This document shows positions 83-10,350 of a DNA stretch of 10,350 nucleotides, one piece after another. The position numbers and the translations under genes were made by a program. Source of the DNA: a virus (taxonomy: Duplodnaviria > Heunggongvirae > Uroviricota > Caudoviricetes); the IMG/VR virus record IMGVR_UViG_2617270945_000014; one strand, written 5' to 3'. The notes below the pieces were generated by a model that made no database searches, was not told the DNA's origin, and worked only from the letters and a program-made list of their open reading frames with translations. Numbering within the stretch: position 1 is the first letter of the stretch; each line of letters begins with the position of its first letter.

Positions 83-520
83 TTGATGGATAAACCTACA
101 GACTGGCGCTCCGGAACCCGCCGGATATTTTCTAATGAATTTAAACTTCATATGGTTGAACTGGCTTCGAAACCAAATGCCAATGTTGCACAACTGGCCC
201 GGGAACATGGCGTTGATAACAACCTGATTTTTAAATGGCTACGCCTCTGGCAAAGAGAAGGACGTATTTCTCGTAGAATGCCTCCAACTATTGTAGGCCC
301 TACAGTATCACAATCTTTTCCGGCCTCTCCGACTCTGGTTCCAGTGGAACTTATCGACACCCCGCGCTGTGCTACAGATGCTCCTGCTCCGGGGGCATTA
401 TCAGTTGCTTGTGCAGCTTCCTGCCATGTGGAATTCCATTACGGTAAAATGATGCTGGAAAATCCTTCACCAGAGCTGCTCACGGTGTTGATCCGTGAGC
501 TGACCGGGAGGGGACGATGA
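83..520 (+). CDS. tnpA: IS66-family accessory protein TnpA (orf1)
   Basis: 145-aa ORF, first gene inside the IS; its stop overlaps the start of the next ORF (ATGA at 517-520), as is usual for IS66 orfA/orfB. Confidence 0.8.
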   Translation: MMDKPTDWRSGTRRIFSNEFKLHMVELASKPNANVAQLAREHGVDNNLIFKWLRLWQREGRISRRMPPTIVGPTVSQSFPASPTLVPVELIDTPRCATDAPAPGALSVACAASCHVEFHYGKMMLENPSPELLTVLIRELTGRGR

Positions 521-867
521 TTTCACTCCCATCAGGTACCCGTATCTGGCTCGTTGCCGGCGTTACTGATATGCGTAAATCCTTCAACGGTCTGGGGGAG
601 CAGATACAGCATGTGCTGGATGATAACCCCTTCTCCGGTCACCTGTTTATCTTCCGTGGCCGACGGGGAGACACGATTAAAATCCTGTGGGCTGATGCTG
701 ATGGTCTGTGCCTGTTCACCAAACGCCTTGAGGAAGGTCAGTTTATCTGGCCTGCGGTGCGTGACGGTAAGATATCCATTACCCGCTCGCAACTGGCAAT
801 GCTCCTCGATAAGCTGGACTGGCGTCAGCCAAAAACATCCCGCCTTAACGCACTGACAATGTTGTAA
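517..867 (+). CDS. tnpB: IS66-family accessory protein TnpB (orf2)
   Basis: 116-aa ORF with the characteristic IS66 Orf2 sequence (…IWLVAGVTDMRKSFNGL…FIFRGRRGD…KILWAD…), translationally coupled to orfA. Confidence 0.85.
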   Translation: MISLPSGTRIWLVAGVTDMRKSFNGLGEQIQHVLDDNPFSGHLFIFRGRRGDTIKILWADADGLCLFTKRLEEGQFIWPAVRDGKISITRSQLAMLLDKLDWRQPKTSRLNALTML

Positions 868-897
868 AAAACGCCGGGCCGGATTATAAAAACGGCC

Positions 898-2511
898 ATG
901 AGTCAGAAATACCTCATTCGCATCGCTGAGCTGGAAAGGCTGCTCTCTGAGCAGGCTGAAGCCCTCCGTCAGAAAGACCAGCAACTGAGTCTGGTTGAAG
1001 AGACGGAGGCCTTCCTGCGCTCTGCACTGGCACGTGCCGAAGAAAAGATCGAAGAAGATGAGCGAGAAATAGAGCATCTGCGGGCTCAGATAGAAAAACT
1101 GCGCCGGATGCTGTTCGGAACCCGTTCTGAAAAACTGCGTCGTGAGGTTGAACAGGCTGAAGCCCTGCTGAAACAACGCGAGCAGGAAAGCGATCGTTAC
1201 AGTGGGCGTGAGGATGACCCGCTGGTTCCCCGCCAGTTGCGACAGTCGCGCCATCGTCGTCCGTTACCGGCACATCTCCCCCGTGAAATATACCGCCTGG
1301 AGCCTGAAGAAAGCTGTTGCCCGGAGTGTGGCGGTGAGCTGGATTATCTGGGGGAAGTCAGCGCAGAACAACTGGAACTGGTGAGCAGCGCCCTGAAAGT
1401 GATCCGCACAGAACGGGTAAAAAAAGCCTGTACAAAATGTGACTGCATCGTTGAAGCACCGGCGCCGTCCCGCCCGATAGAGCGTGGTATCGCGGGCCCC
1501 GGATTACTTGCCCGCGTGTTAACGGGAAAATACTGCGAACACCTGCCACTGTATCGTCAGAGTGAAATCTTTGCCCGACAGGGTGTCGAACTGAGCCGTG
1601 CATTACTCTCCAACTGGGTTGACGCGTGCTGCCAGTTAATGACGCCGCTGAATGATGCCCTGTACCGTTATGTGATGAATACCCGCAAGCTTCACACTGA
1701 CGACACACCGGTAAAGGTACTGGCACCGGGCCTGAAAAAGACGAAAACAGGGCGCATCTGGACGTATGTCCGGGATGATCGCAATGCGGGTTCGTCATCT
1801 CCTCCGGCGGTCTGGTTCGCGTACTCATCGAACCGGCAGGGGAAACACCCGGAGCAACACCTCCGCCCCTTCCGGGGTATCCTGCAGGCGGATGCGTTCA
1901 CAGGTTATGACAGGCTGTTCAGTGCAGAACGTGAAGGTAGTGCGCTGACAGAAGTTGCGTGCTGGGCTCATGCCCGGAGAAAAATCCACGATGTATACAT
2001 CAGCAGCAAAAGTGCGACGGCAGAAGAAGCCCTGAAGCGAATCAGTGAACTGTACGCCATCGAGGATGAAATACGGGGATTACCAGAGTCAGAGCGTCTT
2101 GCAGCCAGGCAGCAGCGAAGCAAAGCGTTACTGACGTCGCTGCATGAATGGATGGTGGAGAAGAATGGCACGCTGTCGAAAAAATCCAGACTGGGCGAAG
2201 CGTTCAGCTATGTACTGAATCAGTGGGACGCCCTCTGTTATTACAGTGATGACGGTCTGGCGGAGGTGGACAATAACACAGCGGAAAGAGCGCTTCGTGC
2301 AGTCTGTCTCGGAAAGAAAAATTACGTGTTCTTCGGTAGCGATCACGGCGGCGAGCGTGGAGCACTGCTGTACGGGCTGATCGGCACCTGCCGTCTGAAC
2401 GGTATCGATCCGGAAGCGTATCTGCGCCATATTCTGAGCGTACTGCCGGAATGGCCCTCCAACCGTGTTGACGAACTCCTGCCATGGAACGTAGTACTCA
2501 CCAATAAATAA
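898..2511 (+). CDS. tnpC: IS66-family transposase (orf3/TnpC)
   Basis: 537-aa ORF with an N-terminal coiled-coil/leucine-zipper-like region, a CxxC…CxxC zinc-finger-like motif (CPECGG…CTKCDC) and a DDE-type core, which is the IS66 transposase architecture. The stop lies 30 bp before the right IR end. Confidence 0.9.
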   Translation: MSQKYLIRIAELERLLSEQAEALRQKDQQLSLVEETEAFLRSALARAEEKIEEDEREIEHLRAQIEKLRRMLFGTRSEKLRREVEQAEALLKQREQESDRYSGREDDPLVPRQLRQSRHRRPLPAHLPREIYRLEPEESCCPECGGELDYLGEVSAEQLELVSSALKVIRTERVKKACTKCDCIVEAPAPSRPIERGIAGPGLLARVLTGKYCEHLPLYRQSEIFARQGVELSRALLSNWVDACCQLMTPLNDALYRYVMNTRKLHTDDTPVKVLAPGLKKTKTGRIWTYVRDDRNAGSSSPPAVWFAYSSNRQGKHPEQHLRPFRGILQADAFTGYDRLFSAEREGSALTEVACWAHARRKIHDVYISSKSATAEEALKRISELYAIEDEIRGLPESERLAARQQRSKALLTSLHEWMVEKNGTLSKKSRLGEAFSYVLNQWDALCYYSDDGLAEVDNNTAERALRAVCLGKKNYVFFGSDHGGERGALLYGLIGTCRLNGIDPEAYLRHILSVLPEWPSNRVDELLPWNVVLTNK

Positions 2512-2519
2512 GCGTCAAT

Positions 2520-2541
2520 ACGGTGCTCCGTTGACGCTTAC
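2520..2541. repeat. IS66 right terminal inverted repeat (extent approximate)
   Basis: Reverse complement of 2511-2541 is gtaagcgtcaacggagcaccgtattgacgct, which matches the left end GTAAGCGT and is imperfect thereafter. Confidence 0.6.
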
Positions 2542-2763
2542 AGAGTAAGGAAGCCTGACGGAGATTATCCAGTGACGATAATCGAGGCTGAGGGCTTTCT
2601 TAATCTCGTATCCGCGTCTGCGGTAGTTATGAATTAGCCATTCGGCCTGTTCTTCAGTACATGGTGGGTGTTGGTACCAGTCGGTTTTAAATGCGTGTGA
2701 ACGCCGCCCATGCCGGATGGCAAGGTCGGTATCAGAATTGTGAAATTTGGTTTTGTGCGCCAT
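2542..2763 (-). pseudogene. Prophage gene of unknown function, C-terminally disrupted by the IS66 insertion (possibly rem-like, by position next to hokD)
   Basis: Minus-strand ORF 2515-2763 runs from native DNA into the IS. The last 8 codons (VSVNGAPY) and the stop are encoded by the IS right inverted repeat (2515-2541), so the native C-terminus is lost. The rem-like guess comes only from synteny with K-12 Qin. Confidence 0.55.
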
Positions 2764-2834
2764 CTGTTTTCTCTGCTGGCGCAGCAGGTGTCAGGTGTTC
2801 AGGCTGACGTGCGAATTGTAAACCAGAATGCCAG

Positions 2835-2862
2835 AAAAAAACAAAACCCGCCGAAGCGGGTT
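2835..2862 (-). terminator. Rho-independent terminator for minus-strand transcription, downstream of hok
   Basis: GC stem AACCCGC / GCGGGTT with a CGAA loop (2845-2862), followed on the minus strand by a U-rich tract (the A-run at 2835-2846 on the + strand). It lies 68 nt past the hok stop. Confidence 0.75.
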
Positions 2863-2930
2863 AAGTGCGGGTGCGTTGAGGATGCCTGACACATCAGAGG
2901 TGGCGAGGGATTTCTCCCCCGCCAGGTCTC

Positions 2931-3086
2931 TTACTCCTCAGGTTCGTAAGCTGTGAAGACAGCGACCTCCGTCTGGCCGGTTCGGAGTCGTACCTCGCAG
3001 AGGTCTTTCCTCGTTACCAGTGCCGTCACTATGACGGTTAAACAGATGACGATCAGGGCGATTAACATCGCCTTTTGCTGCTTCAT
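2931..3086 (-). CDS. hokD: Hok/Gef-family type I toxin (small membrane-depolarising peptide), HokD/RelF-like
   Basis: 51-aa product MKQQKAMLIALIVICLTVIVTALVTRKDLCEVRLRTGQTEVAVFTAYEPEE, recognised from memory as near-identical to E. coli HokD/RelF and close to Gef/HokC. It has one transmembrane helix and the conserved Cys. Start taken at the internal ATG (3084-3086) rather than the 70-aa in-frame extension. Confidence 0.9.
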   Translation of the reverse strand: MKQQKAMLIALIVICLTVIVTALVTRKDLCEVRLRTGQTEVAVFTAYEPEE

Positions 3087-3323
3087 AGCCTGCTTCCCCT
3101 TGCCTTTCGGCACGTAAGAGGCTAACCTACATTTGTGAGACATAGATTGGGCCTCAGATTAATGTTAAGCGTCTTGCAGGACGCGAAATGTTAACTGGGG
3201 CTTTTCTCTATCTGCCTTTCAGTGTTCATGCCTGAGACAGATAGCCTCAAGCACCCGCAGCCATTCTACTTAACTCACGTCACCTCGCCAATATGAAATC
3301 AATCAGAAAGGTGATCCATAAAA

Positions 3324-4010
3324 TCACTCCTTCTCTTCTTTTCCGTAGTGGAGTTGGCCAATTTTGATAAGAGGGCGTCCCTGAGATTTGCGGTGTAGAT
3401 TGGTATCGCGCAGAGAATACACACAGCCACAATATTCCTGCTGATAGAATTTTTCGCGCTTGCTGATTTCAATCATACGGGACGAGCCGCCCTGCTTGCG
3501 CCAGTTATAATCCCAGTACACCATACCCGGATAATGCGCAACAGCTCGCCGCCCACACTCGTTAACCTGCTGCATATTTTTCCAGCGTGAAATGCCCAGT
3601 GAACTGCTGATCACACTGAAACCATTTTCAGCAGCGTACAACGCTGTCCGCTCAAAACGCATGTCAAAACACATGGTACAACGGATCCCCCTCTCAGGCT
3701 CCCATTCCATTCCTTTGGCACGTTCAAACCAGTTGTCGGTGTCGTAATCAGCATCGATAAACGGCACGCCGTGTTGTTCAGCAAAGCGAATATTTTCATC
3801 CTTACGAATTAAATACTCTTTCTGAGGATGAATGTTCGGGTTGTAGAAAAAGATGGTGTAGTCGATTCCCGAGGCCTGAAGCGCCTCCATCACTTCACCG
3901 GAACATGGAGCACAGCAAGAGTGCAGTAGTAGTTTGTTTGCCCCGTTTGGGAGCTCCAATTTAGGCCGTTTGAAATCAGCAATAGTCATAAATATTTTTA
4001 TTGGGGTCAT
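3324..4010 (-). CDS. queH: QueH-like epoxyqueuosine reductase homologue (DUF208 family); start codon uncertain (3989 or 4010)
   Basis: 228-aa ORF with motifs recalled for the QueH/DUF208 family: N-terminal [27 protein letters not shown] and C-terminal [11 protein letters not shown] (Cys-rich Fe-S ligand pattern). Neither candidate ATG has a clear Shine-Dalgarno sequence. Confidence 0.65.
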
Positions 4011-6149: not shown

Positions 6150-7112
6150 TCACCCCCTGAATCCCGGCGGTATTTCAGTGTCCGGTTCAGAAATGTGATT
6201 CACGCAACGCTGCGCAGGCGAACGCCCCAGGCGGATAACCAGTTCATCCCATTTTTCCCGGAGTTTTGCCGGACTCATGATGTTTTTTACCCAGAACGAA
6301 TCCCGCTGGAGACGCCCAAACATTTCACAAATTTGTCTGTGAGTTCTGCCATCCAGCATCCGCATTGTGCGAACGTCATTGGCCCATGCTGTCCAGTTGG
6401 GTTCTTTCGGTCTAGTGATCTCGCCATCATAGCTGGCCGCCTGCTCGTAAAGACTCACGATTCGTCCCCAGATCCACTGTGCGCACACCAAATCTTCCTG
6501 ACTTCCCCACTGGCGTTTTTTCGCACTGAACACAACCGCGTCAGGGTGTCGGGTTAAAAAATCCTGTTCAGCCGTCTGCGGGTCCGGTTGCGAAGCGTCC
6601 GGACAAGAAGATCTTTTATCTGACGGATCAGGTTTTAATACTGACGGATCGGGGTCAATCATCGCCCCCCTAATCGGCAGTTTTTTATCAACAGTTGATC
6701 CATCAAAATTTGACGGGTCAACCGTTGAGGGGGCAATATTTGACGGGTCAACTGTTAACGGGTCATTTTTTGCCGGGCTAATTTTTCTTTTCGGTTTATA
6801 TGACTCACGCGCCGCCGCCGCAGCTGCTTCGAGTTTTTCCACATTAAGCCGATAGATATTGCTTACATTACGCCCACCGACCTTACGCTCTTCCTTCGTC
6901 AGCCAGCCCTCTTTCGCCAGTTCTGCAATAGCCGATTTCACTGTGGATTCACTTCTTGCACCGATCTGACGCCGGATAGTTTCAATGGCAGGCCATGACA
7001 CGCCCTCGTCATTGCTGTAGTCTGCAAGACGGGCCATAACCGCCACCCTGGATAAGATCATGCCGGTGAAGGCGCACCCTTCCCAGACAAGACCATGAAG
7101 CTTGCTGCTCAT
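6150..7112 (-). CDS. Replication initiator, lambda O-like (Rac YdaU-like); N-terminal HTH domain and internal repeat region
   Basis: About 320 aa from the first ATG at 7112 (the ORF track's longer start at 7127 is a GTG). The N-terminus has a winged-helix-like segment (WPAIETIRRQIGARSESTVKSAIAELAKEGWL). The middle contains peptide repeats (TVDPSN…TVDPSN…TVD) encoded by the DNA iterons. Confidence 0.8.
   Translation of the reverse strand: MSSKLHGLVWEGCAFTGMILSRVAVMARLADYSNDEGVSWPAIETIRRQIGARSESTVKSAIAELAKEGWLTKEERKVGGRNVSNIYRLNVEKLEAAAAAARESYKPKRKISPAKNDPLTVDPSNIAPSTVDPSNFDGSTVDKKLPIRGAMIDPDPSVLKPDPSDKRSSCPDASQPDPQTAEQDFLTRHPDAVVFSAKKRQWGSQEDLVCAQWIWGRIVSLYEQAASYDGEITRPKEPNWTAWANDVRTMRMLDGRTHRQICEMFGRLQRDSFWVKNIMSPAKLREKWDELVIRLGRSPAQRCVNHISEPDTEIPPGFRG
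6684..6790. repeat. Putative replication origin: ~30-bp-period iterons inside the O-like gene, followed by an AT-rich tract
   Basis: Palindromic cores TCAACAGTTGA (6688-6698), TCAACCGTTGA (6718-6728) and TCAACTGTTAA (6748-6758) are spaced exactly 30 bp apart. TTGACGGGTCA occurs at 6710-6720 and 6740-6750. An AT-rich stretch follows at about 6776-6800. This matches the ori-lambda arrangement of iterons within the O gene. Confidence 0.7.
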
Positions 7113-7134
7113 AAAACCCCCGAACACCGTGCTT

Positions 7135-7560
7135 TTAGTGCATCACCACAGCATTCCCTGCCGGGCCGCCGCGATTCATCTGGTCATACAAAACAACCGC
7201 TGACGCAACAAAATCATCGACATCCTTCCCCAGCCGATCCCTCCGTTCGACGATCTCACGGTAATATTCAGAACTGTGGCTGCGCATACGGGCCACCAGC
7301 AAAGGCGGCATCGCCTTTTCGATCGCCGGTAACAGAGCCTGCATTTTTTCAACAGCATCAGGGGTGTCTTTCTCTACCCAGCGGAAAATTTTCTGGGTAT
7401 TGCGAGCCAGGGCTTCCGGATGGCTGTCGTCATACAGTTCCGGGAACGTCATACCCAACTCAAAATAAGCCTGGGTTATTCCAGCTGCTGGAACTTTTTC
7501 GCCATCAGGACGCGCCCAGGCATTCATCGCCATGCGGATGTGTTCATGCTTGATTTTCAT
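7135..7560 (-). CDS. YdaT-like protein (Rac prophage YdaT family; in the cII position)
   Basis: 141-aa ORF with AGGAG 9 nt upstream of ATG 7560, overlapping the end of the YdaS-like gene by 17 nt. Size and position match Rac ydaT. Sequence identity is recalled, not searched. Confidence 0.65.
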   Translation of the reverse strand: MKIKHEHIRMAMNAWARPDGEKVPAAGITQAYFELGMTFPELYDDSHPEALARNTQKIFRWVEKDTPDAVEKMQALLPAIEKAMPPLLVARMRSHSSEYYREIVERRDRLGKDVDDFVASAVVLYDQMNRGGPAGNAVVMH

Positions 7561-7825
7561 GAATCAAGCTCCTAGAAAGTGGTTGTGTTAACGTTTTGGT
7601 ATCTTCCAGCTCGGGCCAAATATTCATCCAATCAAAAGGCCTTAGTTGCTGACGTGTAACTTCACCATTACTGGCTCGCTCAATAAGGACACATAACGAT
7701 GCCCCTAACACTTGACCTTTACTCAATGCCTTTCTTAGATAACCGATGCTGGTACCACACTCGCATGCAAACATACGCTGTTCATCTGACGAAAGAGAAT
7801 TGAGAAATATTCTTAATTCTTCCAT
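7544..7825 (-). CDS. Cro-like HTH regulator (YdaS/DicC-position), first gene of the early-right operon
   Basis: 93-aa ORF with AAGGAG 7 nt upstream of ATG 7825. It is divergent from the repressor gene and contains an HTH-like segment (CGTSIGYLRKALSKGQ). Confidence 0.7.
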   Translation of the reverse strand: MEELRIFLNSLSSDEQRMFACECGTSIGYLRKALSKGQVLGASLCVLIERASNGEVTRQQLRPFDWMNIWPELEDTKTLTQPLSRSLIHENQA

Positions 7826-7854
7826 AGCTACTCCTTAGTAAACACAGCAAAGAA

Positions 7855-7930
7855 TACCCACAGGTAAACAAAAGTCAATACCCATAGGTTGTTTACCTTG
7901 CGGTAATCGCATCTATTATTTACCTATGGA
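7855..7930. promoter_or_regulatory. Divergent promoter/operator region between the cro-like and repressor genes (OR-like)
   Basis: Three copies of a 12-bp dyad motif: TACCCACAGGTA (7855-7866), TACCCATAGGTT (7879-7890) and TACCTATGGA (7921-7930, overlapping the repressor ATG). There is also a perfect 10-bp inverted repeat, AGGTAAACAA (7862-7871) / TTGTTTACCT (7889-7898). Confidence 0.65.
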
Positions 7931-8345
7931 CAAATATGAATTTAGACGACAGCAACTCATCAAAATTCGTGATGAGAAATGCGATGGTAAAGCGGTTAAC
8001 GTGGCCAGAAAGATCGGGCGCGAGCCTTCTTATGTATCAAGAATGTTGTACCCAGAGGGGAAAAAGGGAAAAAAACGGATCGCTGATGATATGGTGGAGA
8101 TTATCGAAGAGTCCTTTGGGTTACCCCGGGGATGGATGGATGGTATCGTTTCATCATCAACGAACACAGCCTCCAGTTATGAAACAAGGGTTCTAACGCC
8201 ACGACAACGTATTTTTTTAGATCTCTTAGACGAACTGCCAGAAAGTGAAGCGGATAAATTATTAAAAACTCTTGAAGAGAAAAAACAGTATTACAATATG
8301 ATCTACGAAGAAATCCGTAAAAAGAAAGCACAAAACGCATCATAG
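7926..8345 (+). CDS. Prophage repressor, DicA/RacR-like HTH protein (no S24 peptidase domain)
   Basis: 139-aa ORF divergent from the cro-like gene. It has an N-terminal HTH-like region, and its C-terminal LPESE…LL motif resembles DicA (…LPESEQ…) as recalled. No Shine-Dalgarno sequence precedes the ATG, so the mRNA may be leaderless. Confidence 0.7.
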   Translation: MDKYEFRRQQLIKIRDEKCDGKAVNVARKIGREPSYVSRMLYPEGKKGKKRIADDMVEIIEESFGLPRGWMDGIVSSSTNTASSYETRVLTPRQRIFLDLLDELPESEADKLLKTLEEKKQYYNMIYEEIRKKKAQNAS

Positions 8346-8385
8346 CTCACCAAACAACTAGTCACCAGTTAAGACACCGCAAAAA

Positions 8386-8426
8386 TTTACCCATGGGTAT
8401 TTACTTTTTAAATACCTATGGGTATC
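8386..8426. promoter_or_regulatory. Second operator cluster (OL-like) downstream of the repressor gene
   Basis: The perfect palindrome TACCCATGGGTA (8388-8399) and TACCTATGGGTA (8413-8424) lie 25 bp centre-to-centre, the same motif and spacing as in the OR-like region. Confidence 0.6.
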
Positions 8427-8610
8427 CTTCTTTTCATACCAACCCACCCCGCCCCACAGAATGCAGGGCAATACTTCGAGTTACCAGGCAGTGGTCAGGG
8501 GTTAAGTAGCCAGCCCGAGGCGTAAGAACATGACGGCAGGGTTCAACTTTAATAACTATGCAGCAGGTTTTTGTTCCGCTACCCCGGCGTTAAGGGGAAA
8601 TGAGGTCAGC

Positions 8611-8763
8611 ATGGATACTATCGATCTTGGCAACAGCGAATCTCTGGTATGTGGCGTGTTCCCCAACCAGGACGGTACGTTCACCGCGATGACGTATACC
8701 AGAAGCAAAACGTTTAAAACTGAAGCTGGCGCGCGTCGCTGGTTAACCAGAAACACTGACTGA
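8611..8763 (+). CDS. DUF1391 small protein (YdfA/YdaF-like), first gene of the early-left operon
   Basis: 50-aa product MDTIDLGNSESLVCGVFPNQDGTFTAMTYTRSKTFKTEAGARRWLTRNTD, preceded by GAGG 5 nt upstream. The longer 77-aa ORF from 8530 lacks a Shine-Dalgarno sequence. Sequence and position match YdfA/YdaF as recalled. Confidence 0.7.
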   Translation: MDTIDLGNSESLVCGVFPNQDGTFTAMTYTRSKTFKTEAGARRWLTRNTD

Positions 8764-8774
8764 TGAGGTTGACG

Positions 8775-9095
8775 ATGGAATTTAAAGATTTACCAGTACC
8801 ATTCCAGGAAATGGCATCGAATGTGGTTCGCTCTCAACTGGCGACTCTTGACCTGAGTACCGTAGAAAAAGAAACCATCGACAATATATCCGGTAACGTA
8901 CGCCGAGCCTTTATCGGGCTGTACGAAGAGAAGCAGCTCTCTGATAACCAGGATTTACATGAAAAATACTTCCTGGATCTAATGGACATCATTGATAAGG
9001 GGTTTGGCTTGTTAATGAAAAAGAAAGGGATTCGAATAGAACCCCTTGAAAATTACTTTGCAACAAAAAGCATTAATTCTTTTGATTCAAAATAA
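8775..9095 (+). CDS. Hypothetical protein, 106 aa, in a low-GC cassette (alternative start 8763)
   Basis: ORF in a markedly AT-rich block. GAGG lies 6 nt upstream of ATG 8775, and the alternative ATG 8763 overlaps the upstream stop (TGATG). Acidic/Lys-rich composition; no recognisable motif. Confidence 0.5.
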   Translation: MEFKDLPVPFQEMASNVVRSQLATLDLSTVEKETIDNISGNVRRAFIGLYEEKQLSDNQDLHEKYFLDLMDIIDKGFGLLMKKKGIRIEPLENYFATKSINSFDSK

Positions 9096-9348
9096 GAGAA
9101 TTAATTACAGACTTAACATGCTCTTTCTCATGATTGAAGCTCTCATGATTGAAAGTGCCGGGTTGAAGCGAGTCGATATAATCAACAAGACTCTGTCGTA
9201 CGACTTCATTTTTATCCATAACAGATGCAAGAAATGAAATTGCTAAAAGAGTTATATCACTACGCGCCGCAGCATGTTGCAATGCTTTATCAAAATTATT
9301 AATCTGGCGTATCAGGGAGTTAATGATTTCATCATTTTCAGTCGACAT
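9073..9348 (-). CDS. Hypothetical protein, 91 aa, convergent with the 106-aa ORF
   Basis: Strong AGGAGG Shine-Dalgarno sequence 5 nt upstream of ATG 9348. AT-rich coding region; 3' ends overlap the + strand ORF by 23 nt. The upstream in-frame extension to 9561 is GC-rich, Arg-rich and begins with TTG, so it is judged non-coding. Confidence 0.55.
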   Translation of the reverse strand: MSTENDEIINSLIRQINNFDKALQHAAARSDITLLAISFLASVMDKNEVVRQSLVDYIDSLQPGTFNHESFNHEKEHVKSVINSLILNQKN

Positions 9349-9683
9349 TTCACCCTCCTGAGGGTTGGTGATTAAGGAGTTCTCCACGGGTGAGGTGGAG
9401 TGCGTGCGCCGGACACGGGTGAGCATCCGGCACTGACAGTTTACTGAAAGGATATTTCCCTGAAAAGTCAGACCATAACGCGAAAGCGCCCGGCGAGGTA
9501 GCTGGTTCATAGATAGCCTGTCGTTAAATTTTCGTCGACCGTGCGTTTCCGGTTGTGGCAATCCGCGAAATGGCGCGGCGGTAAGTATGGCGGGGTTATT
9601 CCTTCCCCCGTTGAGGACACCGGGTTGTCAGGTTGACCATACGCTTAAGTGACAACCCCGCTGCAACGCCCTCTGTTATCAAT

Positions 9684-9741
9684 TTTCTGGTGACGTTTGG
9701 CGGTATCAGTTTTACTCCGTGACTGCTCTGCCGCCCTTTTT
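9684..9741 (+). ncRNA. dicF: DicF small RNA (ftsZ-targeting sRNA of Qin/Kim-type prophages); 5' end approximate
   Basis: Sequence TTTCTGGTGACGTTTGGCGGTATCAGTTTTACTCCGTGACTGCTCTGCCGCCCTTTTT matches DicF as recalled. It ends in an intrinsic terminator and lies immediately upstream of dicB, as in K-12. Confidence 0.75.
9699..9741 (+). terminator. Intrinsic terminator forming the DicF 3' end
   Basis: GGCGG (9699-9703) … CCGCC (9731-9735) stem, followed by TTTTT (9737-9741). Confidence 0.65.
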
Positions 9742-9910
9742 AAAGTGAATTTTGTGATGTGGTGAATGCGGCTGAGCGCACGCGGAACAGTTAAAACCAA
9801 AAACAGTGTTATGGGTGGATTCTCTGTATCCGGCGTTAATTGTTAACTGGTTAACGTCACCTGGAGGCACCAGGCACCGCATCACAAAACTCATTGTTGA
9901 GGGCGCGATA

Positions 9911-10099
9911 ATGAAAACGTTATTACCAAACGTTAATACGTCTGAAGGTTGTTTTGAAATTGGTGTCACTATCAGTAACCCTGTATTTACTGAAGATGCC
10001 ATTAACAAGAGAAAACACGAACGGGAGCTATTAAATAAAATATGCATTCTTTCAATGCTGGCCCGTTTACGTCCGATACAAAAAGGATGCTGGCAATGA
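9911..10099 (+). CDS. dicB: Cell-division inhibitor DicB (MinC-dependent)
   Basis: 62-aa product MKTLLPNVNTSEGCFEIGVTISNPVFTEDAINKRKHERELLNKICILSMLARLRPIQKGCWQ, matching DicB as recalled. GAGGG lies 8 nt upstream of the ATG. Confidence 0.85.
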   Translation: MKTLLPNVNTSEGCFEIGVTISNPVFTEDAINKRKHERELLNKICILSMLARLRPIQKGCWQ

Positions 10100-10287
10100 A
10101 TACAGCATTTGCACTTGTTCTGACAGTTTTTCTTGTTTCCGGAGAGCCAGTTGATATTGCAGTCAGTGTTCACAGGACAATGCAGGAGTGTATGACTGCA
10201 GCAACCGAACAGAAAATTCCCGGTAACTGTTACCCGGTCGATAAAGTTATTCACCAGGATAATATCGAAATCCCGGCAGGTCTTTAA
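10096..10287 (+). CDS. ydfD: YdfD-like small lysis-associated membrane protein (63 aa)
   Basis: MNTAFALVLTVFLVSGEPVDIAVSVHRTMQECMTAATEQKIPGNCYPVDKVIHQDNIEIPAGL with an N-terminal transmembrane helix. Its start overlaps the dicB stop (ATGA at 10096-10099), and AAGGA lies 9 nt upstream. Confidence 0.75.
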   Translation: MNTAFALVLTVFLVSGEPVDIAVSVHRTMQECMTAATEQKIPGNCYPVDKVIHQDNIEIPAGL

Positions 10288-10350
10288 AACAGTTCCGTAA
10301 TAAATATCCGGTTTCATTCTTATATGCCAGCAATGGCAGGGATTTGTTCA

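Follow-up and report, generated by a model that had tools for sequence, protein, structure and literature searches.

The closest described counterparts of the locus analysed here are the sieB genes of phages lambda and P22 and of the Rac prophage. In lambda, sieB (34482-35036, plus strand) lies antisense to the PL operon and abuts N. In Rac of Escherichia coli K-12 (L212, where sieB, KilS and kilR occupy 2406-3160), the order is racR, ydaG, ydaF (a DUF1391 gene), sieB in reversed orientation, KilS and kilR, and sieB overlaps ydaF by 4 nucleotides (nt). Work by Ranade and Poteete in 1993 reportedly found sieB to be expressed from the prophage. Independently transcribed accessory genes of temperate phages are known as morons (PMC3594210). 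Here we analyse a small minus-strand gene, 91 amino acids (aa) long and located at 9348-9073 of a 10,350-nt stretch of Caudoviricetes DNA (IMG/VR record IMGVR_UViG_2617270945_000014; "the window" hereafter means this whole stretch), which lies antisense to a dicBF operon. The picture that we find best supported, and that we think somewhat likelier to hold than to fail, is of a small accessory gene, expressed in the lysogen from a conserved antisense start region, here called the dock, at the edge of the DicF leader.

Few cryptic-prophage products have been studied as closely as DicF and DicB, yet the neighbouring genes are unnamed in published operon maps, and a comparative figure of the operon leaves the non-conserved neighbours without names (PMC5069750). 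The DicF leader is processed by RNase III as well as RNase E, and no further promoter has been reported on the plus strand (PMC10448788). Our literature searches, using accession numbers and related terms, returned no description of an antisense gene or of a dock at this place, and when published start or 3'-end data antisense to ydfC and dicF were sought, one listing had only a plus-strand 3' end inside ydfC. What is new here, judged by alignment, is that the minus strand upstream of the ATG, with its -10-like hexamer, leader and Shine-Dalgarno sequence, is conserved across E. coli, Salmonella and Buttiauxella.

Results

Unrelated small genes begin at one conserved start codon

The ATG of the minus-strand gene, at 9348, is preceded by the Shine-Dalgarno sequence AGGAGG (9359-9354) and a 5-nt spacer, GTGAA, which together occupy 9349-9359 of the minus strand. 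We refer to the open reading frame (ORF) that starts at this ATG as the cargo; the window carries type A. The minus strand upstream of the ATG was compared in types A1, A2, B, D and E and in Salmonella. The sequence ending in CCGTGGAGAACTCCTTAATnAnnAACCCTCAGGAGGgTGAA is conserved up to the ATG in all compared types, and unrelated coding sequences start at the ATG itself. Every cargo-bearing locus compared has the Shine-Dalgarno sequence; in K-12 and in locus L003, both of which are without a minus-strand gene, homology is lost just before it.

At least five unrelated cargo types, 63-92 aa in length, replace one another exactly at the start codon. Type D, taken from phage PPompW, is 77 aa long (phrog_10348), type E 73 aa (phrog_7249) and type F 63 aa, and by hhalign the A/B family is unrelated to types D and E. 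A sequence scan found at least 120 IMG/VR loci with the Shine-Dalgarno-bearing sequence. Among the 120 listed, 117 have the ATG in place and nearly all open an intact ORF belonging to one of five families (D about 37, B about 34, A 28, E 14 and F 4); a few cargo alleles are truncated. Complete E. coli genomes (n = 5426) carry type A in 198 cases, B in 127, D in 650 and E in 88, and about 1,060 genomes have one of these four types. Cargo and plus-strand gene are always convergent, with an overlap of 11-41 nt, and each cargo type is tied to one form of the plus-strand gene (A to 106/109 aa, B to 133, D to 135, E to 124 and F to 201 aa). At the level of aligned sequence, these comparisons show that the dock is conserved and that the cargo is exchanged at the ATG.

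Upstream of the Shine-Dalgarno sequence, the minus strand of 9360-9432 is the predicted 5' untranslated region (UTR) of the cargo mRNA and contains two conserved hairpins; read on the plus strand, this stretch opens the dicBF transcript's DicF leader (9363-9684), which is conserved with K-12 and forms the right arm of the exchange. Including the Shine-Dalgarno sequence, the predicted UTR is about 83 nt long and folds into two strong hairpins and a small one around the Shine-Dalgarno sequence (-33.2 kcal/mol, z -2.35). The hairpin alignment holds one compensatory pair, CCGG/CCGG to CCAG/CTGG. Identity over the segment is 85-89% in Buttiauxella and 79% in Salmonella. Buttiauxella is without DicF and the rest of the leader, yet keeps an 88-nt segment made up of UTR plus Shine-Dalgarno sequence, which suggests that the segment serves the minus-strand gene and not DicF processing alone.

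The Buttiauxella gaviniae locus (L211, 1745-2412) has, behind the 88-nt segment, first an ORF of 33 aa and then one of 156 aa that includes a long hydrophobic stretch. These ORFs converge on the repressor gene and showed no similarity to Rac SieB by BLASTP. In Salmonella loci (L006, 4720-4876) a KilS-like sequence, not DicF, lies behind the same dock, and in Rac KilS is flanked by sieB and kilR in the way that DicF is flanked by the antisense cargo gene and dicB. By place, DicF and KilS seem to correspond to each other within a single conserved layout.

A candidate promoter upstream of the cargo gene

A promoter is predicted on the minus strand at 9438-9466 (-35 TTTTCA at 9466-9461, a 17-nt spacer, and -10 TAAACT at 9443-9438), with a predicted transcription start at about 9431. 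The pattern T-A-n-n-n-T is invariant (E. coli TAAACT, Salmonella TGaTAAGCT, Buttiauxella TGgTAGAAT), its distance from hairpin 1 being constant in all three, and the alignment of the three has a T-rich -35-like hexamer 17-18 nt upstream of the -10. Further upstream of the -10-like hexamer, the Buttiauxella sequence is unrelated. A second promoter-like site on the minus strand (9846-9819; TTAACA, 16 nt, GAGAAT) matches 9 of 12 positions and was not adopted, as nothing else supports it. This site (9819-9846) lies between dicB and DicF, is conserved in L005 and visible in K-12, and would, if active, yield an RNA antisense to DicF.

The minus-strand ORF behaves as a protein-coding gene

The first-pass annotation of this DNA had reported two convergent ORFs, of 106 aa on the plus strand and 91 aa on the minus strand, with a 23-nt overlap of their 3' ends (9073-9095) and an AGGAGG before the minus-strand gene. 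All of this was recovered as described, and both ORFs, which RefSeq annotates as hypothetical proteins, proved to be genuine, uncharacterised genes, with homologues in the same layout and a low ratio of nonsynonymous to synonymous substitution (dN/dS) in their own frames.

For the minus-strand gene, a 92-aa protein encoded in the same place and orientation in locus L005 is 28% identical end to end (BLASTP, expect value E 9e-6), and a profile search with the two proteins recovered that family in E. coli together with a 93-aa form in Salmonella. Length, position and start are retained in homologues whose identity is 28% or about 70%. Just downstream of the repressor, the Salmonella 93-aa homologue and a small gene run towards each other and overlap by 41 nt. 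The family corresponds to phrog_18692, a PHROG family of unknown function: five of the seven relatives in the alignment match it as well (best E 5e-62), and the minus-strand protein is 26-32% identical to its members and gives a weak profile match (E 0.022, residues 9-88 of 91). On these matches, type A appears as a separate, distant subfamily of phrog_18692.

Between the type-A alleles A1 and A2 dN/dS is 0.28, the lowest of the six frames, and between E. coli type B and Salmonella type C it is 0.245. In composition-matched shuffles, an open frame this long from the fixed ATG had a chance of 0.0013; the values per cargo type are 0.001-0.004, with a product of about 2e-11. Substitution pattern and frame length together show a real gene under purifying selection. 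Alleles nevertheless vary. Type A shows the in-frame loss of a repeated 5-aa motif, FNHES, and likewise of 9 aa from the hydrophobic helix, and type B has a recurrent frameshifted C-terminus in several strains, DEC2C among them, a sign that the cargo genes are to some extent decaying or dispensable.

The encoded protein has an isoelectric point of 5.4, a grand average of hydropathy of -0.31 and a maximal 19-residue Kyte-Doolittle score of 1.43, and hydropathy analysis found no membrane segment in its 91 residues. Its predicted structure has four helices, with a predicted local distance difference test (pLDDT) score of 64.8. A terminator-like hairpin with a T-run lies 26 nt past the stop of the gene, inside the plus-strand gene (9025-9047, minus strand); it is weak, hairpin counts being near the shuffle expectation.

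Searches for function

Neither window protein gave a significant match in Pfam, NCBIfam or PADLOC, and neither did the alternative cargo and partner proteins, of which type F was scanned against Pfam only. In PADLOC-DB 2.0 the best matches were BrxA for the window proteins (E 0.014, 12.7 bits) and HerA for the alternative cargo and partner proteins (E 0.022), neither significant. A profile search of PDB sequences gave 0 matches at E up to 10, a BFVD structure search nothing below E 0.49, and no domain of a toxin, antitoxin or DNA-binding type came to light. In Pfam, NCBIfam and PHROG scans, the 91-aa protein matched neither SieB nor any other family significantly. An exhaustive phmmer search of 1.84 billion representatives with this protein returned only close copies or fragments of the E. 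coli protein and one marginal match, a repetitive 1168-aa protein. A word-seeded search likewise found only near-identical E. coli proteins and fragments, and when the peptides of one genome per species were scanned no relative turned up, types A and B being absent from all of these genomes.

The profile and structure searches that had been proposed for both proteins thus yielded no function match, and the suggestion of a defence or toxin-antitoxin function gained no direct support: alongside the empty PADLOC, Pfam, NCBIfam and PDB searches, there is no membrane segment, the genes are convergent rather than co-directional, and the fold matches are uninformative. The defence reading would have to be argued from position. 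A type II toxin-antitoxin pair was considered and set aside, the genes being convergent and no toxin-antitoxin domains being found in Pfam, NCBIfam or PADLOC.

The plus-strand gene is a mosaic with a conserved N-terminus

The convergent plus-strand gene (8775-9095) encodes 106 aa, or 110 aa if an alternative ATG at 8763 is used. Its product matches phrog_6937, a PHROG family of unknown function, over its full length (E 6e-67, residues 1-106 on profile positions 1-106 of 124), and its first approximately 55 residues also match phrog_1363, phrog_2151 and phrog_9419. There are 231 homologues; dN/dS between the window and locus L004 is 0.24, and an AlphaFold2 model has three helices (pLDDT 70.7). 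The N-terminal domain of about 54 aa (8775-8935), defined by alignment and PHROG matches, forms the left arm of the exchange. Near-invariant, it is joined to at least five C-termini, in proteins of 106/109, 124, 133, 135/122 and 201 aa, and sequenced phages hold this N-terminal part of the gene only. The gene is real and mosaic, a conserved 54-aa N-terminus with a swappable C-terminus, and it is an ordinary member of the repressor-controlled early-left (dicBF) operon.

DNA of the plus-strand gene is present in 923 of the 5426 complete E. coli genomes. In most of the 923 the match ends at query position 328 (window 9091), and the usual form there is a 124-aa protein without a minus-strand gene behind it, as in L003. 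The type A gene is carried by 198 of the approximately 920 related loci; about 720 matching genomes lack it, most of them being without any minus-strand gene. Besides type A cargo, the type-A C-terminal core can be accompanied by the unrelated type E cargo or stand without any minus-strand gene. The first-pass annotation had treated the two ORFs as one cassette; as a unit of exchange this did not survive, since the N-terminal domain of the plus-strand gene is kept in about 920 genomes and the type-A C-terminal core also occurs with type E or without cargo.

The cargo-less 124-aa locus L003 has, at 3468-3656 (plus strand), Rfam matches to isrK and to the C4 antisense RNA. These lie downstream of DicF, in overlap with the start of a gene, annotated as Rha-family, that comes before dicB.

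A slot of its own beside the DicF leader

The guanine-plus-cytosine (GC) content of 8764-9348 is 0.383, against 0.50 in the DUF1391 gene and 0.548 in the DicF leader. The AT-rich block reported previously is therefore present in kind, with narrower limits: the drop is confined to 8936-9348 (GC 0.351), the lowest 413-nt stretch in the whole window, and just 0.18% of such stretches reach a value as low as this. By composition and by alignment with L005, 8936-9348 is the variable block, comprising the C-terminal half of the plus-strand gene and the entire minus-strand gene. L005 is 98% identical to the window over 6264-8934, repressor included, yet carries type B cargo; its whole variable block is swapped, homology breaking at 8934, within the plus-strand gene, and restarting at 9346. 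In L001, a type A block that is 100% identical stands behind a different repressor. Cargo type is independent of immunity type. With such block swaps and at least five cargo types, comparison across related prophages bears out the earlier proposal of a variable cargo site.

In the alignment with K-12 Qin, homology stops after ydfA (8742) and restarts at 9363 in the DicF leader, with 97% identity over 9363-10350, and the block occupies the interval in which K-12 has ydfB/ydfC. The earlier placement in the ydfB/ydfC slot was right as to this interval with respect to K-12; as a general replacement it fails, since the genes co-occur. In L004, ydfA, ydfB and ydfC are followed by the same plus- and minus-strand gene pair, and in L010, the PPompW phage, ydfC is followed by a variant pair. 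The two slots are therefore adjacent and not alternatives: the gene pair has its own slot beside the DicF leader, next to that of ydfB/ydfC and not equivalent to it.

Gene context and other features of the window

The genes said to surround the block were all recovered. A DicA-like repressor gene lies at 7926-8345 (plus strand; phrog_5736 transcriptional regulator, E 6e-70, with a weak DicA subfamily match in NCBIfam). Directly 3' of it is a terminator-like hairpin of 16 bp with a T-run (8388-8424, plus strand), which would part repressor transcription from the dicBp-type promoter region. The DUF1391 gene (YdfA/YdaF-like; 8530-8763, plus strand; Pfam PF07151, E 6.6e-27) is immediately upstream of the plus-strand gene. 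The DicF small RNA follows the leader at 9685-9736 (plus strand; Rfam RF00039, 76.7 bits), and DicB and then DUF1482 lie downstream of it.

The left end of the window holds an IS66-family insertion element (83-2511, plus strand) with three ORFs (83-520, 517-867 and a transposase at 898-2511), apparently an insertion into the late-regulatory part of the prophage. At 2931-3256 lies a hok/sok type I toxin-antitoxin locus (minus strand; Hok-family ORF 2931-3143, Rfam sok 3081-3256, 120.5 bits). Between it and the replication genes is a full-length homologue of QueH, epoxyqueuosine reductase (3324-4010, minus strand; Pfam E 1e-65), a place taken in L001 by a methyltransferase and a SMEK-domain gene.

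Discussion

We suggest that the minus strand of the first approximately 90-120 nt of the DicF leader supplies a weak sigma-70-type promoter, a hairpin-rich 5' UTR of about 83 nt and a strong Shine-Dalgarno sequence, and that unrelated small ORFs of 63-92 aa, in the window the 91-aa type A, are joined to this dock exactly at the ATG. Running counter to the repressed operon, the gene would be expressed in the lysogen without being subject to DicA-type repression. On derepression of the operon, convergent transcription and RNA pairing would oppose transcription of the minus-strand gene. Promoter activity, expression in the lysogen and the role of the gene are all inferred from sequence. Our best guess as to role is a benefit to the lysogen, through exclusion of other phages or modulation of the toxic dicBF products. 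Phage exclusion or defence specifically is a role to which we would give clearly less than an even chance. The broader proposal, that the antisense DicF/KilS leader is a dedicated dock conserved in Enterobacteriaceae, whose cargo forms an undescribed set of lysogen-expressed anti-phage or DicF/DicB-modulating genes, is tentative and a shade less probable again.

Several observations weigh against this picture. The candidate promoter matches just 8 of 12 consensus positions, a promoter scanner reported nothing on the minus strand between 9349 and 9800, and the promoter elements are also kept in cargo-less loci, in which DicF processing could account for their conservation. Terminator scans found nothing comparable to the 9025-9047 hairpin after the type B or the Salmonella genes. 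Types A and B had no tblastn match in 50,697 sequenced phage genomes. The minus-strand gene is missing in most of the approximately 720 genomes that have the plus-strand gene without type-A cargo, and some of the type B alleles carry a frameshift, from which it follows that the cargo can be dispensed with. Finally, the protein has no membrane segment, in contrast to SieB.

One alternative is that the minus-strand ORF is non-functional, either a chance frame opposite AT-rich sequence or a decaying remnant. The family is narrow, phmmer finding only close copies and fragments and no species-representative genome encoding it; some alleles are truncated or frameshifted, and both promoter and terminator are only predicted. 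Against this, length, position and start are preserved at 28% identity as well as at about 70%, dN/dS is lowest in the frame of the minus-strand gene, the chance of the open frame is about 0.001, and 117 of the 120 docks listed keep the ATG and nearly always open an intact ORF from it. We disfavour this alternative and consider it very improbable indeed. The same protein-level conservation bears on the possibility that the locus acts chiefly through RNA or transcription, in that transcription from the dock collides and pairs with dicBp transcripts and so damps leaky DicF/dicB expression, the protein being secondary. The minus-strand gene lies wholly between dicBp and DicF on the opposite strand, so that every dicBF transcript is complementary to the entire minus-strand mRNA, and the 3' ends always overlap, by 11-41 nt. 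Moreover, dicBF is toxic and under layered control that includes RNase III processing (PMC10448788), and conservation across cargo types is seen in the dock and not in the cargo. Purifying selection in the protein frame, a length kept at 28% identity, and a strong Shine-Dalgarno sequence retained only where an ORF follows all speak for the protein, and we hold a primarily RNA-level explanation to be unlikely, while noting that protein and RNA-level roles are not mutually exclusive.

It is also possible that the two genes form a cognate module, the variable C-terminus of the plus-strand protein acting as an induced effector or toxin and the convergent minus-strand protein as a constitutive immunity protein or antitoxin. 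The architecture of conserved N-terminus, variable C-terminus and adjacent variable gene fits such a module, as does the association of each cargo type with one specific plus-strand form. In Salmonella, the type-B C-terminal module exists as a stand-alone 71-aa gene (60% identity) that is still paired with a cargo homologue, with a 41-nt overlap, despite a different left flank, and purifying selection acts on each of the two genes (0.19 and 0.25). The type-A C-terminus of the window protein has no detectable similarity to this 71-aa partner. Linkage of the block, however, is expected from recombination in the two conserved flanks alone, and the type-A C-terminal core most often has no cargo beside it, and elsewhere either type A or the unrelated type E, so that the window's minus-strand protein is not an indispensable partner of that domain. 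The lack of any detected toxin, antitoxin or DNA-binding domain also counts against a module. A cognate pair ranks below a single accessory gene on the dock, and is in our estimate about as improbable as an action chiefly through RNA.

About a fifth of complete E. coli genomes, O157:H7 included, carry one of these cargo genes. Were the dock active, some 1,060 of the 5426 complete genomes would express one of several small proteins from a position equivalent to that of sieB. These proteins would offer a compact set of candidate prophage-encoded exclusion or regulatory factors, the dock a natural case of cargo exchange at a fixed start codon, and the two together a possible extra layer of control over a toxic operon.

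Comparison with known systems

The ydfB/ydfC genes of K-12 Qin share the ydfA-to-DicF-leader interval with the window block; they differ in being co-directional with the operon and are unrelated in sequence to the window pair. The pair resembles polymorphic toxin-immunity loci, and pore-forming colicin operons with a convergent immunity gene, in that an N-terminal part is conserved, the C-terminal part varies and a variable small gene lies alongside; here too, induction would apply to one gene, its convergent neighbour being constitutive. The pair differs from them in having no recognisable toxin or immunity domain. Classification as a polymorphic toxin-immunity module was rejected, since strict pairing of C-terminus and partner is broken, the type-A core being found with type A, with type E (unrelated by hhalign) or with none.

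The minus-strand gene resembles morons in being small, low in GC relative to its flanks (0.351 against about 0.5), present or absent among relatives, and oriented so that expression in the lysogen is permitted. A classical moron brings its own promoter and terminator, whereas here the start signals are resident and only the ORF is exchanged. Signals of the moron type at the window amount to the 8-of-12 candidate promoter, with a -10 conserved in three genera, and a terminator-like hairpin seen in the window only. Two Salmonella prophages (L007, 6011-7413; L008, 4968-6370) have a further two genes inserted between the repressor gene and the convergent gene pair. These match PDC-M63, a candidate defence system in PADLOC (A, E 5e-42; B, E 8e-41), and DUF6932 is present in one of the two. 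The repressor-proximal region there therefore accepts candidate defence cargo.

The nearest parallel is with sieB. SieB has no sequence similarity to the 91-aa protein, and Rac SieB is a 162-aa protein with hydrophobic segments, while the window protein is soluble and acidic; with neither homology nor hydrophobic membrane segments, membership of the SieB protein family was rejected. The window slot is also multi-allelic with a shared start region, unlike sieB. In layout, Rac is homologous to the window on both sides of the block (8435-8744 and 9731-9895). Like the window gene, sieB of lambda and Rac is a single gene antisense to the early-left operon that converges on promoter-proximal genes, and in Rac a small RNA (KilS) and a division inhibitor (kilR) follow it, as DicF and dicB follow the window gene. 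The first-pass annotation was thus well founded in placing the gene antisense to the dicBF operon, as the gene layout makes plain, and in a slot equivalent to that of sieB, with which position and antisense orientation agree in both Rac and lambda. By this analogy, the position and logic of the minus-strand gene appear to be those of sieB in lambda and Rac.

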